Shown: positions 3,525 to 41,979 of the stretch, piece by piece
How the letters are laid out: each line of letters begins with the position of its first letter
How positions within the stretch are numbered: position 1 is the first letter of the stretch
Virus record (IMG/VR): IMGVR_UViG_2734482773_000007
Direction: 5' to 3' (one strand)
Length of the DNA stretch: 42,304 nucleotides
DNA from: a virus
Taxonomy: Duplodnaviria; Heunggongvirae; Uroviricota; Caudoviricetes
The notes under the pieces: generated by a model
What the model was told of the DNA's origin: nothing
The model's input: the letters and a program-made list of their open reading frames with translations, nothing else
Database searches by the model: none
Program-made: the position numbers and the translations under genes

Positions 3525-4442
3525 TTATAATAGTGCTGTTACTATTGCATCTTTAAAAATATTTTCTTCTTCATTTATTAAAGGTGATGACAGATGAATA
3601 ATTACTTCTTTTCCTGTCAATACTATTTGCTCGACTTGAAATCCTGCGTTGTGTAGTCTTTGGCGTAACTTTTCTAGTGCTGATTTTGATATACTAAATC
3701 CTTCACTCCTTATAGTATAACTGGCAACTCCATTTTTAATAATATCTACAGAGTTGTCAATTTCCTGCTGCGAGTAATTTTTCGGTGAGTCGAAAAATCT
3801 GGATTTTGTCGTTGCTGTTGCCCTAAGAGATATCAATAATGATTTGATATCTTTAATCTCAGATGCCAGATACTCAGTTTCTGATACTTCTTTCTGGTCT
3901 AGTTGTGCAACTTTGAAAGTGCCAAAATGTTTGAGGAATGTTGTGTATTCAGGATCAGTTACTGACTTTAAATATGTTTCTTTTATCTTGCTCGCAAGTC
4001 TTTCTTTGAATAAATTGATTGATTGGTATCTTAAATCCGAAGGGTACTCTAAATGTTCAATTGATGAAATGTCAAAGCTATAAGGAGTGCGCTCGTCCTT
4101 AATAATTACGGTCGGTTTGTCAAATGCGAGACGCATTCCTAATTCAAACATTACATTAGCGTTTCGAGCACTTATATCGCAAACAACTATGGGGTTTTCA
4201 TAAAGATTTTGAACAATTCGTTTTTGTATTACTGCAACATCATCATCTGAACTTACCAAATTTGCCTTGAATCCGGCATCATTTGATGCTTCACAAATAA
4301 TGTCATGAACATTTCTCCAATGTCCAGTGGGATAACCTTCTATGTCCGCAATTGGCATAATAATGCCGCATATATGAGGTGGCATATTTTTGTTGTCTTT
4401 TACATCATCTTGGTTTATTTCTTTCGTTTGTTGCTTAGCCAT
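3525..4442 (-). CDS. AT-rich accessory protein: N-terminal TIR-like/ThsB-like domain plus ~170-aa C-terminal domain of unknown function
   Basis: 305 aa; codon usage visibly AT-rich versus neighbours; N-terminal pattern IIMPIADIEG ... NPIVVCDISARNANVMFELGMRLAFDKPTVII resembles the beta-strand / N-V-x-x-E-x-G core of TIR-like (ThsB/DUF1863-type) folds; RBS AGGAGT upstream. Confidence 0.5.
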   Translation of the reverse strand: MAKQQTKEINQDDVKDNKNMPPHICGIIMPIADIEGYPTGHWRNVHDIICEASNDAGFKANLVSSDDDVAVIQKRIVQNLYENPIVVCDISARNANVMFELGMRLAFDKPTVIIKDERTPYSFDISSIEHLEYPSDLRYQSINLFKERLASKIKETYLKSVTDPEYTTFLKHFGTFKVAQLDQKEVSETEYLASEIKDIKSLLISLRATATTKSRFFDSPKNYSQQEIDNSVDIIKNGVASYTIRSEGFSISKSALEKLRQRLHNAGFQVEQIVLTGKEVIIHLSSPLINEEENIFKDAIVTALL

Positions 4443-5171: not shown

Positions 5172-5933
5172 TTACGAGGAAGCGTTAGCTATTTGAGCTT
5201 GTGTAAATTCGAAACCAGAATTTTGTAACCGTTGCACTAGACGAGGAACTGTTTCACGTACATGGTCGTTGAAATTCAGATACAAAATCCCGTTAGCATC
5301 AGAAGGCTGTTCTAGGTGCTGTTTCTGAAGGATTGCTACATTGCTGCGCCCTAAGGACGAAAGAAGCATACCCATCTCGAGTACAACGTTCTGTCTTGCG
5401 CGGGGTTGGATTTCTGCTTCACCGGCGCGCTTTGAGTATCCCATATCATCAGGTGTCAAAAGAACAATCCCGAAACGGGTAGCAGTTTGTCCTTGCCCAA
5501 TTTCACGTTCAAGCTCTTCAATAATGGTGAGTCCAGTCCCTCCCGTATTCTGCAAAATGAAATGGTCTGGTAATCCAAGTTTATGAAGGATTAGCTCAAG
5601 TTGCTCCTTTGCAGTATGGTCATGGCCGTGAACAATGAATATCTTTTTGGGGAGCTCAGATGGCTGTTCTACGGCTAGTGGTGTTGCCGTGGGTGGCGTT
5701 CCTAAATGGGTCATTATTGCAGTTTCAACATTGGGACGTTCTTGAGGGTTACCTTGAAACTGAATGGTCCGGGTGGTGTAAAGGTTAACAATTACGCCAT
5801 TCGTTAAACGATAGCAGTCACAAGTCTCACGCTGTTCGTGGGAAAAATTGGTGAACCCACACTCCCTCAAAAAGTCAGGAAAAGTTTCTCTCGGGTATGG
5901 ATAGGTGATCGGCATTTCAGTTAGTTCCTGCAT
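5172..5933 (-). CDS. two-domain accessory protein: N-terminal unknown domain plus C-terminal TIR-like domain (candidate anti-phage effector)
   Basis: 253 aa; C-terminal half KIFIVHGHDHTAKEQLELILHKLGL ... RFGIVLLTPDD ... ARQNVVLEMGMLLSSLGRSNVAIL matches what I recall as the TIR-like 'predicted nucleotide-binding' family signature (VFIVHG start, NV..E.G core); own terminator downstream. Confidence 0.55.
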   Translation of the reverse strand: MQELTEMPITYPYPRETFPDFLRECGFTNFSHEQRETCDCYRLTNGVIVNLYTTRTIQFQGNPQERPNVETAIMTHLGTPPTATPLAVEQPSELPKKIFIVHGHDHTAKEQLELILHKLGLPDHFILQNTGGTGLTIIEELEREIGQGQTATRFGIVLLTPDDMGYSKRAGEAEIQPRARQNVVLEMGMLLSSLGRSNVAILQKQHLEQPSDANGILYLNFNDHVRETVPRLVQRLQNSGFEFTQAQIANASS

Positions 5934-33108: not shown

Positions 33109-34176
33109 ATGTCACAGAACTGGATGAGACATTTCGAGCTGCAGCTTGTGGACGGGAACGGTCAGGGAATTGAGCTAAGTGATTTCAAAGTCACCTTTAC
33201 GATCGACTGGTTCAACATCAGCAGCGCGTCCCGGGTAGGGACTATCAAAATTTATAACCTCTCGGCAGATACTGTGAACCGAATTACCGGGCAGGAGTTT
33301 TCGAAAGTGCGTCTGATTGCGGGTTACGACGGTATCGCGCCGGAGGTGTCGGCAAGCGATGTCGGGACCGTGCGGGAGGTTGATGCGGCGGACGTGGGCC
33401 AGAGTGATGGCCGCAACTACGGACTGATTTTCAGCGGTGAAATTCGCTACTCGGTCACAGGAAAAGACAGCCCGGTTGATTCCTACGTCCTGATTCAGGC
33501 AGCCGATACAGATCTGGCTTTTGCCACCAGTATAACCTCACAGACGCTGGCTGCCGGTTACACGGTCGCTGATGTGAACCGTGCGCTGATGAAAGACTTC
33601 GAAGCCAAAGGTGCGACCGAAGGCCTGACGCCTGAAATGCCTGCTACTGTATTCCCCCGGGGGCGGGTACTCTTTGGCATGACGCGGCATCTTATGGATA
33701 ATGTAGCCGGGCAATGTGGCGCAACATGGCAATTCGTGGATGGTCAACGCCAGATGGTGGCGAATAATGAATATGTTCACGAAGCGATTGTGCTCAACAG
33801 CGCTACCGGGCTTATTGGCATGCCGCAGCAGACTATCGGTAACGGCGTAAACGTCCGCGCGCTTATTAATCCGAACATCCGGGTTAACGGGCTCATTCAA
33901 CTGGATCAGGCTTCAGTGTATCGTACCGCGTTGTCGAACAACGATATCGCGATGGCCGGTGGGCAGATCACCGACCAGAACACGGACGGAAATATTACGC
34001 TAAGCGGCACCACATCGCAGCCTGCCAGCATCGCAACGGATGGCGTTTATATTGTGCGTGGGATTATGTACACTGGCGACACAAGGGGGCAGGCGTGGTA
34101 CATGGATATGATGTGTGAAGCACGTGGCGCGGCTGATCTACTTTCGTCCTCAGCGCAGCAAAGGATTTATTCATGA
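33109..34176 (+). CDS. baseplate hub-like protein (Mu gp44 / late control D-like position)
   Basis: 355 aa; position after tape measure in Mu-like order. Confidence 0.45.
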   Translation: MSQNWMRHFELQLVDGNGQGIELSDFKVTFTIDWFNISSASRVGTIKIYNLSADTVNRITGQEFSKVRLIAGYDGIAPEVSASDVGTVREVDAADVGQSDGRNYGLIFSGEIRYSVTGKDSPVDSYVLIQAADTDLAFATSITSQTLAAGYTVADVNRALMKDFEAKGATEGLTPEMPATVFPRGRVLFGMTRHLMDNVAGQCGATWQFVDGQRQMVANNEYVHEAIVLNSATGLIGMPQQTIGNGVNVRALINPNIRVNGLIQLDQASVYRTALSNNDIAMAGGQITDQNTDGNITLSGTTSQPASIATDGVYIVRGIMYTGDTRGQAWYMDMMCEARGAADLLSSSAQQRIYS

Positions 34177-34520
34177 AGCGTATGAAGTTAGTTTTGACAA
34201 TTTCGTTATTATTTTCTTGTTCAGCAGCTTTTGCTGATTTGCAATGCGGCGGATATCTACTTCATGCAGCTGATAACGGTTGGACAAAAATCAACGGTGA
34301 GCAGGTAACATCACAGAAGATTACGTTTCTTGGTAAGAAAGATGACTGGGACAACGTTAAAACGAACATGGGCCTGATGCCTTCTCGCGATGGCAACAAT
34401 TACGGCTTTGAGTTTGTGAAGCGTAACGGAAAAGCTTTCCTGAACGTCCAGCTTCTGCAGAACAGCATGGATGCGCCTAAAATCATCGGATCATTCCCTT
34501 GTAAAAAGGCGTTACGCTAA
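34173..34520 (+). CDS. small secreted protein (cleavable signal peptide), moron-like
   Basis: 115 aa; N-terminus MKRMKLVLTISLLFSCSAAFA then DLQ fits Sec signal with AFA cleavage site; AT-rich; inserted between baseplate hub and spike genes. Confidence 0.55.
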   Translation: MKRMKLVLTISLLFSCSAAFADLQCGGYLLHAADNGWTKINGEQVTSQKITFLGKKDDWDNVKTNMGLMPSRDGNNYGFEFVKRNGKAFLNVQLLQNSMDAPKIIGSFPCKKALR

Positions 34521-34547
34521 AGTTTGATGTCAATCTTCCGAGATGAG

Positions 34548-34582
34548 CGCTTTAAGGTTGACGAGATATTGTTCAAAGTTCA
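34548..34582 (+). promoter_or_regulatory. candidate promoter for the 34616..35771 cassette (TTGACG-N17-CACAAT)
   Basis: Read from sequence; weak -10. Confidence 0.25.
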
Positions 34583-34615
34583 CAATCACAATCCCTTTAG
34601 TAAGAGAAATAATCC

Positions 34616-35389
34616 ATGGCGGCAGGCATCCCATTAGAAAAAGCGCAAAAATATATTGAACAATTCAATGCGCTTCTATTGGATAGGGAAAGTTTAGATC
34701 CCTTCACTGAAAAGAAAATTCGAGAGGAACTTTCTGTCTCTCCAACGCCTGCTACCAACATTGCACTATCTTATCTGGATGCAATAACCGGAAAGATTGA
34801 AAGCGCGTTACGTTATCTCAGGATAAGCCTAGAAGTAAACGATGTAACGTTGGCAATGCACTATCATCACATTTTAATTAATACATTTAGCTATAATGAA
34901 CTCAAGGATGTCTATGTCCCGCTGGCAAAGAAGTATCGGACAAAACTCTTTAGTCACAACGCATACAGTTGGGCGTACCGTTGCGGCGAGCGTGAACAGT
35001 TAAAATTTTATATGGAAGAGCACATTAAGCTTCTTTCTGAATCAGAAGGCAGGAGTAATGCTATGAAGCACAAAGAAGAACTCCTTGCAGAAATGGATAA
35101 TTTCTATAGCGCCACACAGTGCTCGAAGGAACAGTTCCAGACCTTAGCATCCATAATCTGGGGCTTGCTAAGTGAATACAAGGCTACGACAGGTTTCGTT
35201 CAGCTTAGTGGAAGCGGTTGCTATGTTGTTGATATTAAAAATCTTGAGCCTAAAACTATTGCCAAAATGAACTTCGACTTGGCTGATAGAGTCTGCGCTG
35301 AATCTAAACTGGATGATTGTTCCCTGTTAGCTAGATTTACCTCTCCGCGTCAGTTGCATACGGGGGTGAGCTACCATGTCGGTAACTAG
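34616..35389 (+). CDS. hypothetical helical protein, first gene of AT-rich two-gene cassette
   Basis: 257 aa, AT-rich codons, no signal peptide, no catalytic motif recognised; overlaps next gene by 14 bp. Confidence 0.55.
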   Translation: MAAGIPLEKAQKYIEQFNALLLDRESLDPFTEKKIREELSVSPTPATNIALSYLDAITGKIESALRYLRISLEVNDVTLAMHYHHILINTFSYNELKDVYVPLAKKYRTKLFSHNAYSWAYRCGEREQLKFYMEEHIKLLSESEGRSNAMKHKEELLAEMDNFYSATQCSKEQFQTLASIIWGLLSEYKATTGFVQLSGSGCYVVDIKNLEPKTIAKMNFDLADRVCAESKLDDCSLLARFTSPRQLHTGVSYHVGN

Positions 35390-35771
35390 CAATCAGATTC
35401 TCGATACCGCTCGATTATGTCTGTCTGAAAATATTGAGAGTGGATTTCGAAGCGCTATCTCAAGGGCGTATTACAGTATGTTACATGAGTCTATTAGCTC
35501 ACTTACTGCCATACCGCATTTTACCCATGAGCATCACAAAAATACTGTGGGTTATATGTCAACGCCCTCAGAGTGCAAATCAGAGCCATACCCGACAAAT
35601 ACACTGAAATCCCTAGCTTTCGTACTTCGCCAGTGGCGGGATGCTAGAAATGAAGCTGACTATGATCTGACGAATGTGACTGTTTCGAAAGAGATGGGAC
35701 AGGATGCAATCGAGGCTGCTGAACTCTATTTTGAGCGCTGGGAACAGCTAAAGTCTGCTAGAGTTTCATGA
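35376..35771 (+). CDS. small helical protein with HEPN-like features, second gene of cassette
   Basis: 131 aa; SRAYYSMLHES contains an R-x6-H spacing and AYY..LH helix start reminiscent of HEPN domains; tentative. Confidence 0.5.
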   Translation: MSVTSNQILDTARLCLSENIESGFRSAISRAYYSMLHESISSLTAIPHFTHEHHKNTVGYMSTPSECKSEPYPTNTLKSLAFVLRQWRDARNEADYDLTNVTVSKEMGQDAIEAAELYFERWEQLKSARVS

Positions 35772-35788
35772 ATAAAATTAACGTTATC

Positions 35789-35813
35789 AAACCCGCTTCG
35801 GCGGGTTTTTTGC
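35789..35813 (+). terminator. rho-independent terminator (AAACCCGC-TTCG-GCGGGTTT + T-tract)
   Basis: Perfect 8-bp stem, UUCG tetraloop, U-run; 18 nt after cassette stop. Confidence 0.8.
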
Positions 35814-35830
35814 TTTCTGGAGCCTACTAA

Positions 35831-36583
35831 ATGGCAGTATCTGACCAGACCCGCAGCGGCGACCTTGCCGAAACATTCAAATCTGAACGGGAAACAACAA
35901 AGAACCAGATCCGTGTCGCCTTGCCTGGCATTATTCAGTCATTCGATCCTGATGCGGTGACGGCAGTTGTGCAGCCTGCTATCCGTTCGGTTGAAAAGGA
36001 TAATGACGGCAACCGCATTACCAAAAATTACCCATTGCTGGTGGATGTGCCAGTGGTATTCCCGCGCGGCGGAGGATGTACGCTAACATTCCCAGTTAAA
36101 GCCGGTGATGAATGTTTGGTGATTTTTGCCGATCGTTGTATTGATTTCTGGTGGCAGAGTGGCGGGATACAGGAGTCGGTCGATGACAGAATGCATGATT
36201 TATCGGATGCGTTTTGTATTGTCGGTCCCCAGTCGCAGGCAAGGAAGATTAGCGGTATTAATACCAGTGCCACACAGTTGCGTAGTGATGACGGCAGCAC
36301 CTATTTTGAGCTTAATCCTGATACCAGGAAAATTAAAATTGTCGCTCCAGGTGGTCTTGATGTGGTTGTCCCTCTGGCTGATTTTTCTGAGAAAGTAACC
36401 ATTCATGGCCTGTTAACCTGGATGGGTGGCATGGTGGGGTCTGTTGTTTCTGGTGTGGCTTCAAAAATCACTGGTGCTGTTGAGTTCTTGGGGAGCGTTA
36501 AGGCTAACGGCAAGCCAATCGATGATACGCACACTCATGGCGGTGTTCAGCGCGGTGGAAGCAATACCGATGGGGTAAACTGA
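35831..36583 (+). CDS. baseplate spike / assembly protein V-like
   Basis: 250 aa; gpV/Mu gp45-like position; Gly-rich C-terminus. Confidence 0.6.
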   Translation: MAVSDQTRSGDLAETFKSERETTKNQIRVALPGIIQSFDPDAVTAVVQPAIRSVEKDNDGNRITKNYPLLVDVPVVFPRGGGCTLTFPVKAGDECLVIFADRCIDFWWQSGGIQESVDDRMHDLSDAFCIVGPQSQARKISGINTSATQLRSDDGSTYFELNPDTRKIKIVAPGGLDVVVPLADFSEKVTIHGLLTWMGGMVGSVVSGVASKITGAVEFLGSVKANGKPIDDTHTHGGVQRGGSNTDGVN

Positions 36584-40491: not shown

Positions 40492-41037
40492 TTATGTGTG
40501 AGATGAGTTATAAATAATTTCAGAGTGAAATTTAGTAATGAATGTGGAGTCATCAGGAATGTCATGCAGTACCAATGCATGAGCTCCTATTTTTACATTA
40601 TTCCCTATATGCACTTTGCCACCAAGGATGGTGGCGTTACAGCCAATGGTTACATTATTTCCTATGACAATATCCATATCATTAAATTCACCGCGAAGTC
40701 CAATAGTTACCCCTGGCTTAATTGAACAATTTTCACCTATTGTAACTTTGTGACCGATAACAACGCCATTGAGATAAGATATGTCGAACCCTTTACCAAT
40801 ATTTACAGTTAAGGGAACGGTTACATTGTATTTATCAAGAATGAAGCGTTCTATTTTTCCTGCAATCTTTCGCCGGTATCCTCCTTTATCAAAAAGATAT
40901 TTTGCTACGCGCCACCAAAATAAATAACGTAATCTTCTGTGTTTTATTGCGCGAACAATTGCTTTTCGCCAGGAGAAAGGGCGTTTATAACCTATTACTT
41001 CATAGTGTATACAGTTTTTAAGTTCACTAATATTCAT
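40492..41037 (-). CDS. hexapeptide-repeat acyltransferase (left-handed beta-helix; candidate lysogenic-conversion acetyltransferase)
   Basis: 181 aa; repeated [LIV]-G-x-x-x-x-I-G units (VVIGHKVTIGENCSIKPGVTIG ... IGNNVTIGCNATILGGKVHIGNNVKIG); AT-rich; convergent with Tfa, 10-bp gap. Confidence 0.7.
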   Translation of the reverse strand: MNISELKNCIHYEVIGYKRPFSWRKAIVRAIKHRRLRYLFWWRVAKYLFDKGGYRRKIAGKIERFILDKYNVTVPLTVNIGKGFDISYLNGVVIGHKVTIGENCSIKPGVTIGLRGEFNDMDIVIGNNVTIGCNATILGGKVHIGNNVKIGAHALVLHDIPDDSTFITKFHSEIIYNSSHT

Positions 41038-41331: not shown

Positions 41332-41979
41332 CTATGAAGCTAATTTGTTTAATTTCATTTGTAGCGACTTTACTTCTTGGTCGATAATGTTGAATCCCTT
41401 ATTGACTGCATCTCTTAGTTCTGCATCAATATTTTTTATCCCTTGAGCATAATCTACCATTACATCTATTTTTTCATCATGTAATCTCTTATACATGGTT
41501 TTATCTTTGTTATTGTCAGCCATACCAATAAGGATTTTTTCATAATCCTCAATGAGTTTGTTGTTTCCTTTAAATGATTGTATTAATGACCGTGAATATG
41601 TGTAGATATTAATTATTGAGTCTCTGGCAGAATCATTTAGTTTTGCAATGACATTCGCATTTTGCTCATAGAATGTGAAATTATCATCCCCTACAGGGAA
41701 AGTGAGAATTAACATCTGTCCGGGTTTGATATTATCAATGTGTGTTTTCATCCTTTTATTATATAAATTGATTAGGGTGAAAACTTCTCCCTTAACACCT
41801 TTTAATACTGAAAGTTGCAATTCAAGGGATTCTCTTTCTGTCTCTACTTTAGACAGCTTAGCTTGTTGGGTAACTCCTTTTAGGGTAAACCATCCGCCAA
41901 TAAGAGTACCAACTAGAGCTGTGAGGGAGGAGGATAACCATCCAGGAATGCTATTTAAAAAATTACTAAATTCACTCAT
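41332..41979 (-). CDS. AT-rich hypothetical protein with N-terminal transmembrane anchor
   Basis: 215 aa; N-terminal hydrophobic segment LSSSLTALVGTLIGGWFTL then coiled-coil-like region; strongly AT-rich. Confidence 0.5.
   Translation of the reverse strand: MSEFSNFLNSIPGWLSSSLTALVGTLIGGWFTLKGVTQQAKLSKVETERESLELQLSVLKGVKGEVFTLINLYNKRMKTHIDNIKPGQMLILTFPVGDDNFTFYEQNANVIAKLNDSARDSIINIYTYSRSLIQSFKGNNKLIEDYEKILIGMADNNKDKTMYKRLHDEKIDVMVDYAQGIKNIDAELRDAVNKGFNIIDQEVKSLQMKLNKLAS

Follow-up and report, generated by a model that had tools for sequence, protein, structure and literature searches.

A two-gene prophage moron pairs an AF0298-type HEPN protein with a TPR-like partner and occupies a cargo slot between baseplate hub and spike genes

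Several described systems join a HEPN protein to a dedicated partner or place one on a prophage. In HepT/MntA, a type VII toxin–antitoxin (TA) system, two genes encode a small HEPN RNase toxin and, upstream of it, the partner that neutralises it; a tyrosine beside the catalytic motif (RX4HXY) is important as the site that the nucleotidyltransferase (MNT) partner AMPylates. Proteins of the HEPN-T clade (PF05168, UPF0332), which includes AF0298 of Archaeoglobus, typically stand alone or are paired with or fused to an MNT (PMC3710099). AbiV of Lactococcus, linked to the AF0298-type clade by a common alternative histidine (PMC3710099), has been shown experimentally to be a metal-independent RNase in abortive infection (bioRxiv 10.1101/2024.05.05.592566). 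HepS, a HEPN protein carried as a prophage moron on Gifsy-1, protects the lysogen and is activated by a phage tail-tip protein, which sets a precedent for the sensing of structural proteins. Here we describe two overlapping open reading frames (ORFs), ORF-A and ORF-B, in the 42,304-nucleotide Caudoviricetes record IMGVR_UViG_2734482773_000007 of IMG/VR (the whole of which is called the window below), a complete prophage whose genes include those for an integrase and a CI-like repressor, besides replication, head and tail genes (Table 1). ORF-B is a true HEPN protein of the AF0298/UPF0332 (HEPN-T, PF05168) type, ORF-A is its obligate partner, and the two form a phage moron that we tentatively read as a TA-like or abortive-infection module.

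Scans with the single ORF-B sequence against Pfam, NCBIfam and PADLOC gave no match, and PHROGs returned a family of unknown function, so that its HEPN identity could be recognised only through alignments and structure. A profile of 22 ORF-B homologues matched the PDB entries 9xbd and 9xbc ('HEPN domain-containing protein') and AF0298; with a broader profile of 15 sequences, the matches to 9xbd and AF0298 had E-values of 3.6e-10 and 1.9e-6 respectively. A search for the literature origin of 9xbd and 9xbc found none. The AlphaFold (AF2) model of ORF-B (predicted local distance difference test score, pLDDT, 89.7) is a four-helix up-down bundle (residues 5–17, 21–42, 74–95 and 105–130) with an inserted helix between helices 2 and 3 (residues 53–67). 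Its best Foldseek match is AF0298 (PDB 2hsb; template-modelling scores 0.68/0.71, probability 1.0), followed by the HEPN domain of sacsin, ST0689 and HEPN-MNT toxins. ORF-B of the window itself falls below the Pfam PF05168 model, which only some of its homologues reach: a Rahnella homologue (69% identity) scores 24.2 bits against a gathering cut-off of 22, other alleles lie just under it, and several homologues carry precomputed PF05168 matches or the labels 'HEPN domain-containing' or 'UPF0332' (JGI). An earlier note on this DNA, made by eye, had called the second gene HEPN-like, and the sequence profile, the fold and the Rahnella homologue all bear this out.

The active site of ORF-B departs from the canonical HEPN arrangement. 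The Rx4-6H motif is absent from the end of helix 3, where the site reads R91-N-E-A-D95-Y96, and a tyrosine replaces the motif histidine in each of the 35 unique alleles, as it does in the distant members. The key invariant residues are E21, R25, R30, Y32, Y33, H37, H54, R91, D95 and Y96, among which R91, D95 and Y96 align with the R, D and Y of AF0298 and 9xbd, while H54 aligns with a histidine of AF0298 (SKTHRG) and of 9xbd (SSHSAV). The elements SR[AS]YY..H, H54 and R..[AS]DY are retained in every allele down to 26% identity. A census of HEPN proteins found that AF0298-type HEPN-T proteins and AbiV are without the motif histidine, and proposed that a second conserved histidine in the helix-2/3 insert completes an alternative active site (PMC3710099); ORF-B, lacking the motif histidine but having H54, fits this pattern. 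The earlier note had rested its assignment on an R-x6-H spacing. Such a spacing is present and conserved (R30...H37), but it sits in helix 2, whereas the canonical site is R91-x4-Y96 and the alternative histidine is H54.

ORF-A has no Pfam family, no NCBIfam match and no solved counterpart, its structural matches being TPR-like only, and a fold search of BFVD yielded just two relatives, both uncharacterised. In its model (pLDDT 91.4), eight helices form a TPR-like array (residues 7–139), followed by two long helices (146–187), a small alpha/beta unit (192–242) and a disordered but conserved tail (247–257). The possibility that ORF-A is a cryptic MNT was rejected, as Pfam, NCBIfam and PDB searches gave no nucleotidyltransferase match and a 'GSG...D' stretch at residues 198–206 is not conserved; without a nucleotidyltransferase signature, ORF-A is not the MNT partner usual for the HEPN-T clade. 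An exhaustive profile search for ORF-A gave 123 clusters at 50% identity, nearly all of them stand-alone proteins of ~250–260 amino acids. No residue is invariant across this wide family, and the 54-sequence alignment was too divergent for designing locus-search patterns. Variability peaks in TPR helices 4–6 (residues 61–106), where mean pairwise identity is 0.32–0.34, compared with 0.57 in the C-terminal half. This focus of variability, together with the lack of invariant residues, argues for a role of ORF-A in binding or sensing and against an enzymatic one.

In every locus retrieved via ORF-A (more than 60, comprising 41 IMG/VR contigs, five GTDB genomes, and E. coli, Enterobacter and Rahnella loci) an ORF-B homologue lies directly downstream, and the distant ORF-B members all have an upstream A-family partner of ~260 amino acids. 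The overlap of the two genes, 14 bp in the window, is retained in 35/35 unique pairs (11–26 bp). Pairwise identities among A proteins track those among B proteins (r = 0.95, 595 comparisons), and the median ratios of non-synonymous to synonymous substitution rates (dN/dS) are low, ~0.08 for ORF-A and ~0.07 for ORF-B, indicating that both are real, constrained and co-evolving proteins. The pairing is thus obligate from both sides, with both members co-diverging under purifying selection. The layout is that of a type II TA operon, in which A comes first and overlaps B, and the two share a promoter and a terminator.

Phylogenetic footprinting of 14 upstream regions from four phage contexts located a sigma-70-type promoter ahead of ORF-A. 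The TTG of the –35 element is invariant in all 14 regions, the surrounding sequence being scrambled (mean identity 51%), and positions A2, A4 and T6 of the –10 element are invariant or nearly so at a spacing of 17–18 nucleotides. A consensus scan also picks out the –35 element, although that scan alone was not above chance. Both elements overlap the candidate promoter that had been placed by eye at 34548–34582, and transcription would be predicted to start at ~34593–34595. The UUCG-loop terminator previously read at the other end of the cassette is confirmed: it folds with a free energy of –13.1 kcal/mol (z = –3.2), and 0/200 shuffled sequences were as stable. Every context has a hairpin and T-run 3' of ORF-B, and in the lambda-like copies the two arms of the stem have changed in a compensatory way (CCCGCC/GGCGGG to CCCAGC/GCTGGG). 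Since the terminator trails ORF-B in each unrelated context, we rejected the idea that it is purely a feature of the phage backbone, although in the myovirus slot described below all other cargo types end at this terminator too. A Shine–Dalgarno-like sequence for ORF-B lies within the 3' end of ORF-A, and from this arrangement ORF-B is predicted to be translationally coupled to ORF-A. The order promoter, A, B, terminator makes the cassette a match to the textbook moron layout. With its own promoter and terminator, its atypical GC content (0.42 in ORF-A and 0.44 in ORF-B, against ~0.53–0.55 in the hub and neighbouring tail genes) and its presence or absence among near-identical phages, the cassette is a phage moron; the GC values and the ORF calls also agree with the two AT-rich genes, overlapping by 14 bp, that were originally reported.

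The place of the cassette in the tail module is itself polymorphic. The flanks were matched in 353 of 5,426 complete E. coli genomes, of which 27 carry this allele, and prophages with 98–100% identical hub and spike genes carry differing cargo in the same slot, which makes the hub/spike slot a cargo hotspot in this E. coli prophage family. Homology between the prophages stops at the last codons of a 115-amino-acid ORF (~34508) and restarts at the terminator hairpin (~35789). Among the alternative cargos (Table 1) a DUF4282 gene is apparently the commonest, and those in L016, L017, L018 and L003 all finish at the same conserved terminator. The protein encoded ahead of the YafO-family toxin in L014 was considered as a relative of ORF-A and rejected as unrelated; nor is it, by its size, a YafN-like antitoxin. 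The E. coli slot also holds two strongly diverged alleles of the A/B pair, of 258 + 123 amino acids (hhalign 100%/99.9%) and 243 + 142 amino acids (hhalign 76%/97%). Divergence of the cassette is decoupled from that of its flanks, with 30–53% identity against 96–100%; the Enterobacter kobei copy illustrates this, ORF-A and ORF-B being 42% and 53% identical next to a hub at 96% and a sheath initiator at 94%. In several prophages the spike next to the slot is also markedly more divergent than its neighbours, for instance at 68–70% identity compared with 94–98% for the sheath initiator in L003 and L005.

Beyond this slot, the pair was found at other sites, giving at least eight positions in unrelated temperate phages. 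These are the myovirus hub/spike slot (E. coli, Enterobacter, Rahnella and others); the interval between tape measure and gpM genes in a lambda-like context (Enterobacter hormaechei); the interval between assembly chaperone (TAC) and tape measure genes of siphoviruses, including Klebsiella phage ST405-OXA48phi1.3; a lambdoid early region past O/P (L063); a P2-like gpQ–gpA locus (Vibrio); a site downstream of antiterminator Q (Proteus); the mor/gemA interval of a Mu-like prophage (Enterovibrio); and the gpS/gpV spike interval of a P2-like phage (Aeromonas). The P2 gpA–gpQ locus, which holds old and tin, is a validated anti-phage hotspot (Rousset et al., PMC9122126). The lambdoid early region has a different HEPN-like ORF ~1.1 kb downstream of A/B (L063:8296-8790; weak PF18735 HEPN_RiboL-PSP match, E = 6e-4). 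Strain PK8276 of E. coli (L001, thrW–proA region) carries a prophage remnant that has lost its head genes and most of its tail genes, so that the baseplate plug gene comes straight after the integrase and a few early genes, yet the A/B cassette is intact at 99.9% identity.

When set beside the described systems, ORF-B is closest to the HEPN-T proteins AF0298 and 9xbd/9xbc, with a similar length (~125–131 amino acids), the same fold, and an aligning helix-2 SxAYY, insert histidine and R-x3-D-Y. It departs from the usual HEPN-T organisation in its partner, which is always the 257-amino-acid-type TPR-like protein. The pair resembles HepT/MntA in its two genes and upstream partner, but the ORF-B motif is R-NEAD-Y-D-L and there is no MNT, so that any neutralisation must act by binding rather than by AMPylation. 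AbiV differs in being 201 amino acids long, in its N-terminal 'shoelace' segment and Rx5H motif (RNHKSKH), and in having an RNA antitoxin, abiV2 (type III TA), whereas ORF-B has 131 amino acids, a protein partner under purifying selection and no match to the PADLOC AbiV model. HepS likewise differs, being a solo tetramer with a canonical R100-x4-H105, and no sequence relation between it and ORF-B was found; PDB profile searches gave only 9xbd/9xbc and AF0298 as HEPN matches. HEPN domains are also combined with alpha-solenoid repeats (TPR or Sel1), fused or in an operon, in the conflict loci of LA2681, AbiU2, C6orf70 and the 'HEPN-TPR' pFR83 of Rousset et al., but those HEPN domains belong to other families with a canonical Rx4-6H, and the pFR83 HEPN was rejected as an ORF-B homologue (hhalign 0.6%). 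As a mobile unit, the cassette shares its promoter–gene–terminator organisation, atypical GC, presence/absence polymorphism and multiplicity of alternative cargos at one conserved site with HK97-type morons and with the P2 gpA–gpQ and P4 psu–int hotspots.

The pair was not found described in PADLOC, Pfam (for ORF-A), NCBIfam or the literature searched, in agreement with the earlier note, which had not recognised it as a known system; nor did the supplements of DefensePredictor or Rousset contain its accessions. HepS, Tai, HEC-08 and BcTir/Tpr were examined as prior descriptions and rejected as different systems. Nor did we find an earlier report that identifies the hub/spike slot in this family of E. 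coli myovirus prophages as a hotspot. What is new, then, is a HEPN-based module resembling TA and abortive-infection systems, with a new partner family, and an undescribed hotspot; the HEPN-plus-TPR/Sel1 theme is known elsewhere.

On balance, and with moderate confidence, we lean towards the cassette being a moron-borne TA-like or abortive-infection module in which a non-MNT partner serves a HEPN-T effector. Circumstantial support for a toxin/immunity role is strong and comes from the obligate pairing, the co-divergence, the moron layout, the residence in a validated defence hotspot and the YafO-toxin allele of the same slot. Under this proposal, the lysogen would express ORF-A and the coupled ORF-B from the moron's own sigma-70 promoter, and ORF-B would dimerise into a metal-independent RNase using R91 and the alternative H54 (plus D95/Y96 and R30/H37). 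ORF-A, made first, would bind ORF-B in the lysogen and keep it inactive there, with its variable TPR surface serving as the sensing or release element for a phage cue. Infection by another phage, or loss of ORF-A, might then leave ORF-B to cut cellular RNA and abort the infection. The RNase or toxin role of ORF-B is drawn by analogy with HepT/MntA, AbiV and HepS; its RNase activity and toxicity, like neutralisation by ORF-A and an anti-phage phenotype, are inferred.

Several observations weigh against this reading. The canonical catalytic histidine is absent (Y96) and RNase activity has only been proposed for the AF0298 type, which leaves room for ORF-B to act by binding without catalysis. Classical type II antitoxins differ from ORF-A, a large, well-folded protein in which no DNA-binding domain was detected; the ribosome-binding site of ORF-B overlaps the sequence for the ORF-A tail and in part confounds the conservation seen there. 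PADLOC-DB 2.0 gave no match for the window proteins and, for five alleles, only weak HEPN_IX matches (best E = 3e-4) with none for any A protein. Rousset et al. tested a thematically similar fusion, the 'HEPN-TPR' of pFR83 in the P4 hotspot, and list it only among the non-validated systems (PMC9122126).

A more specific form of the proposal, which we regard as decidedly speculative, concerns the trigger. The hypervariable TPR surface of ORF-A might recognise a structural protein of the superinfecting phage (spike, tail tip or baseplate) and so free the non-canonical Tyr/alternative-His HEPN RNase, making the pair a two-component analogue of HepS and the Gifsy-1 J protein. Insertion beside spike or tail-tip genes (hub/spike, TMP/gpM, TAC/TMP and gpS/gpV, TMP being the tape measure protein) would then tie the sensor genetically to the 'escape' version of the trigger protein that the resident phage itself encodes.

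The same antitoxin-first, translationally coupled layout would also suit a purely selfish addiction cassette, whose loss kills or arrests the cell and which stabilises itself and its prophage with no meaningful protection against phages. Its high mobility between loci, the exchange of alleles, its retention in the degraded prophage by thrW in strain PK8276 and the TA-like YafO allele in the same slot can all be read in this way. We nevertheless consider a purely selfish role unlikely, given that the module is found only in cargo hotspots of temperate phages, one of them experimentally enriched in anti-phage genes, and that ORF-A does not have the architecture of a small, labile, DNA-binding antitoxin. 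Many such TA systems have moreover proved to be defensive, so that one reading need not exclude the other.

Late tail operons contain half of the insertion sites, at which late read-through would express the pair too, and HEPN enzymes include ring nucleases and RNA-processing enzymes (PMC3710099). The pair might accordingly serve the phage itself during lytic growth or establishment, for example as an RNase that silences transcripts of the host or of competitors, or that destroys defence signalling molecules as a form of counter-defence, with ORF-A as a chaperone or targeting subunit. Such a role strikes us as distinctly improbable. A conserved sigma-70 promoter and terminator of its own are the signature of lysogen-expressed morons; the pair is dispensable, most related prophages being without it (the allele is in 27 of the 353 E. 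coli slot genomes); and early-region and P2 accessory hotspots, which have no connection with late genes, hold it as well.

The replacement of the canonical histidine by tyrosine in every allele raises a further alternative, that ORF-B is an inactive HEPN adaptor that binds nucleotide or RNA, and that the pair is a regulatory or sensing complex (for host physiology or lysogeny, for example) rather than a toxin-based system. The HEPN domains of sacsin and of kanamycin nucleotidyltransferase are precedents for non-catalytic HEPN. The HEPN census, too, notes inactive versions that serve as binding domains (PMC3710099). A dense set of polar residues (E21, R25, R30, H37, H54, R91, D95 and Y96) is nevertheless invariant down to ~26% identity, H54 corresponds to the proposed alternative catalytic histidine of the clade, and AbiV, which is linked to the clade through that histidine, is a demonstrated RNase (bioRxiv 10.1101/2024.05.05.592566); an inactive adaptor is for these reasons very doubtful.

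Finally, a role as lineage-specific tail or baseplate assembly factors, suggested by the hub/spike position and by recurrence beside spike or tail-tip genes in four contexts, is effectively refuted: the pair is dispensable, being absent from most prophages with 98–100% identical tail flanks, which hold unrelated cargo instead; it occurs outside tail operons (O/P region, downstream of Q, Mu mor/gemA, P2 gpA–gpQ); and it has a HEPN fold and a promoter and terminator to itself, with no match of either protein to a tail family in Pfam, NCBIfam or PADLOC, the only PHROGs matches being to families 17809 and 5176, of unknown function. The earlier note's view of the two proteins as accessory cargo with no resemblance to tail proteins is upheld by these library scans and by the slot polymorphism, and the homology and fold searches showed neither to be a conserved tail-assembly protein.

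If the TA-like or abortive-infection reading is right, the cassette would be a two-component HEPN system in which a TPR-like protein takes the place of the nucleotidyltransferase beside an AF0298-type HEPN protein, and it would open a first functional route into the UPF0332/HEPN-T clade, which is large and uncharacterised and whose active site is without the canonical histidine. The hub/spike slot, an unreported hotspot in a common E. coli prophage family, offers further candidates in the YafO pair, the DUF4282 and DUF2335 proteins and the unknowns.

Table 1. Features of the cassette, its flanks and alternative cargos of the hub/spike slot. Coordinates without a locus prefix are those of the window.
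Feature	Coordinates	Strand	Basis and remarks
ORF-A	34616..35389	+	257 amino acids; ORF call and raw sequence
ORF-B	35376..35771	+	131 amino acids; ORF call and raw sequence
–35 element TTGACG	34558..34563	+	Phylogenetic footprinting; sigma-70-type promoter of the cassette
–10 element CACAAT	34581..34586	+	Footprinting; 17 nucleotides past the –35 element; TAGAAT/TAAAAT in other alleles
Shine–Dalgarno-like GGGGGTGAG for ORF-B	35362..35370	+	Inside the 3' end of ORF-A; read from sequence
Intrinsic terminator	35789..35814	+	8-bp stem, UUCG loop, U-run: AAACCCGC-UUCG-GCGGGUUU
Exchanged (variable cargo) segment of the hub/spike slot	34509..35788	+	Alignments of eight slot types
Baseplate hub gene, left flank	33109..34176	+	phrog_196 at 1e-88; PF22759 weak
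Small secreted/lipoprotein-like ORF, left border of the slot	34173..34520	+	115 amino acids; phrog_3443
Central spike gene, right flank	35831..36583	+	PF18352 (N-domain) at 4e-44 and Apex motif
Slot cargo: 190-amino-acid protein, then YafO-family toxin	L014:1299-2289		PF13957, 4e-17; E. coli 98234
Slot cargo: pair of 184 + 56 amino acids	L016:1129-1857
Slot cargo: DUF4282	L017:1172-1411		79 amino acids
Slot cargo: unknown protein	L018:1106-1618		170 amino acids
Slot cargo: DUF2335	L003:3750-4322		190 amino acids

The cassette had been placed between the hub and spike genes. The two flanking genes are confirmed by their phrog_196 and PF18352 matches; a small ORF of 115 amino acids, omitted from the earlier note, also separates the cassette from the hub gene, whose stop codon it overlaps. 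The N-terminus of this ORF is signal-peptide/lipobox-like (MKRMKLVLTISLLFSC...). Present in all slot variants but fast-evolving (45–100% identity), with one allele annotated as 'STY1065/STY2022 family phage-derived protein', it is part of the phage backbone and not a member of the cassette; it could be a surface or superinfection-exclusion factor.

In at least two RefSeq E. coli genomes ORF-B was left unannotated by PGAP (L001:7290-7732 and L004:4082-4524), and in Klebsiella phage MK416008 (L066:4819-5162) it is split into two small 'hypothetical' ORFs. With the HEPN gene unannotated and ORF-A without a Pfam family, protein-based defence finders would miss the module. The exact 257-amino-acid ORF-A and 131-amino-acid ORF-B were moreover filed in one 90%-identity cluster under an ORF-A representative (P0029), which is why ORF-B was absent from the first homology search; the joint filing is probably an artefact of clustering, and a fused or frameshifted gene call may have bridged the two.

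Other parts of the window carry further candidate accessory genes. In the prophage early region, positions 5172–5933 (– strand) encode a 253-amino-acid protein with a CAP12/Pycsar-type TIR domain (PF10137, 3e-31), likely a second defence cargo on the same prophage. Between the genes for this TIR protein and an SNF2-type helicase lies a 305-amino-acid ORF (3525–4442, – strand) with a GC content of 0.34 and no Pfam match, which looks like another accessory insertion. At the prophage end past the tail-fibre assembly gene, two genes with a GC content of 0.33–0.36 (40492–41037 and 41332–41979, both on the – strand) encode a hexapeptide-repeat acetyltransferase and an unknown protein of 215 amino acids, possibly cargo for surface or O-antigen modification.

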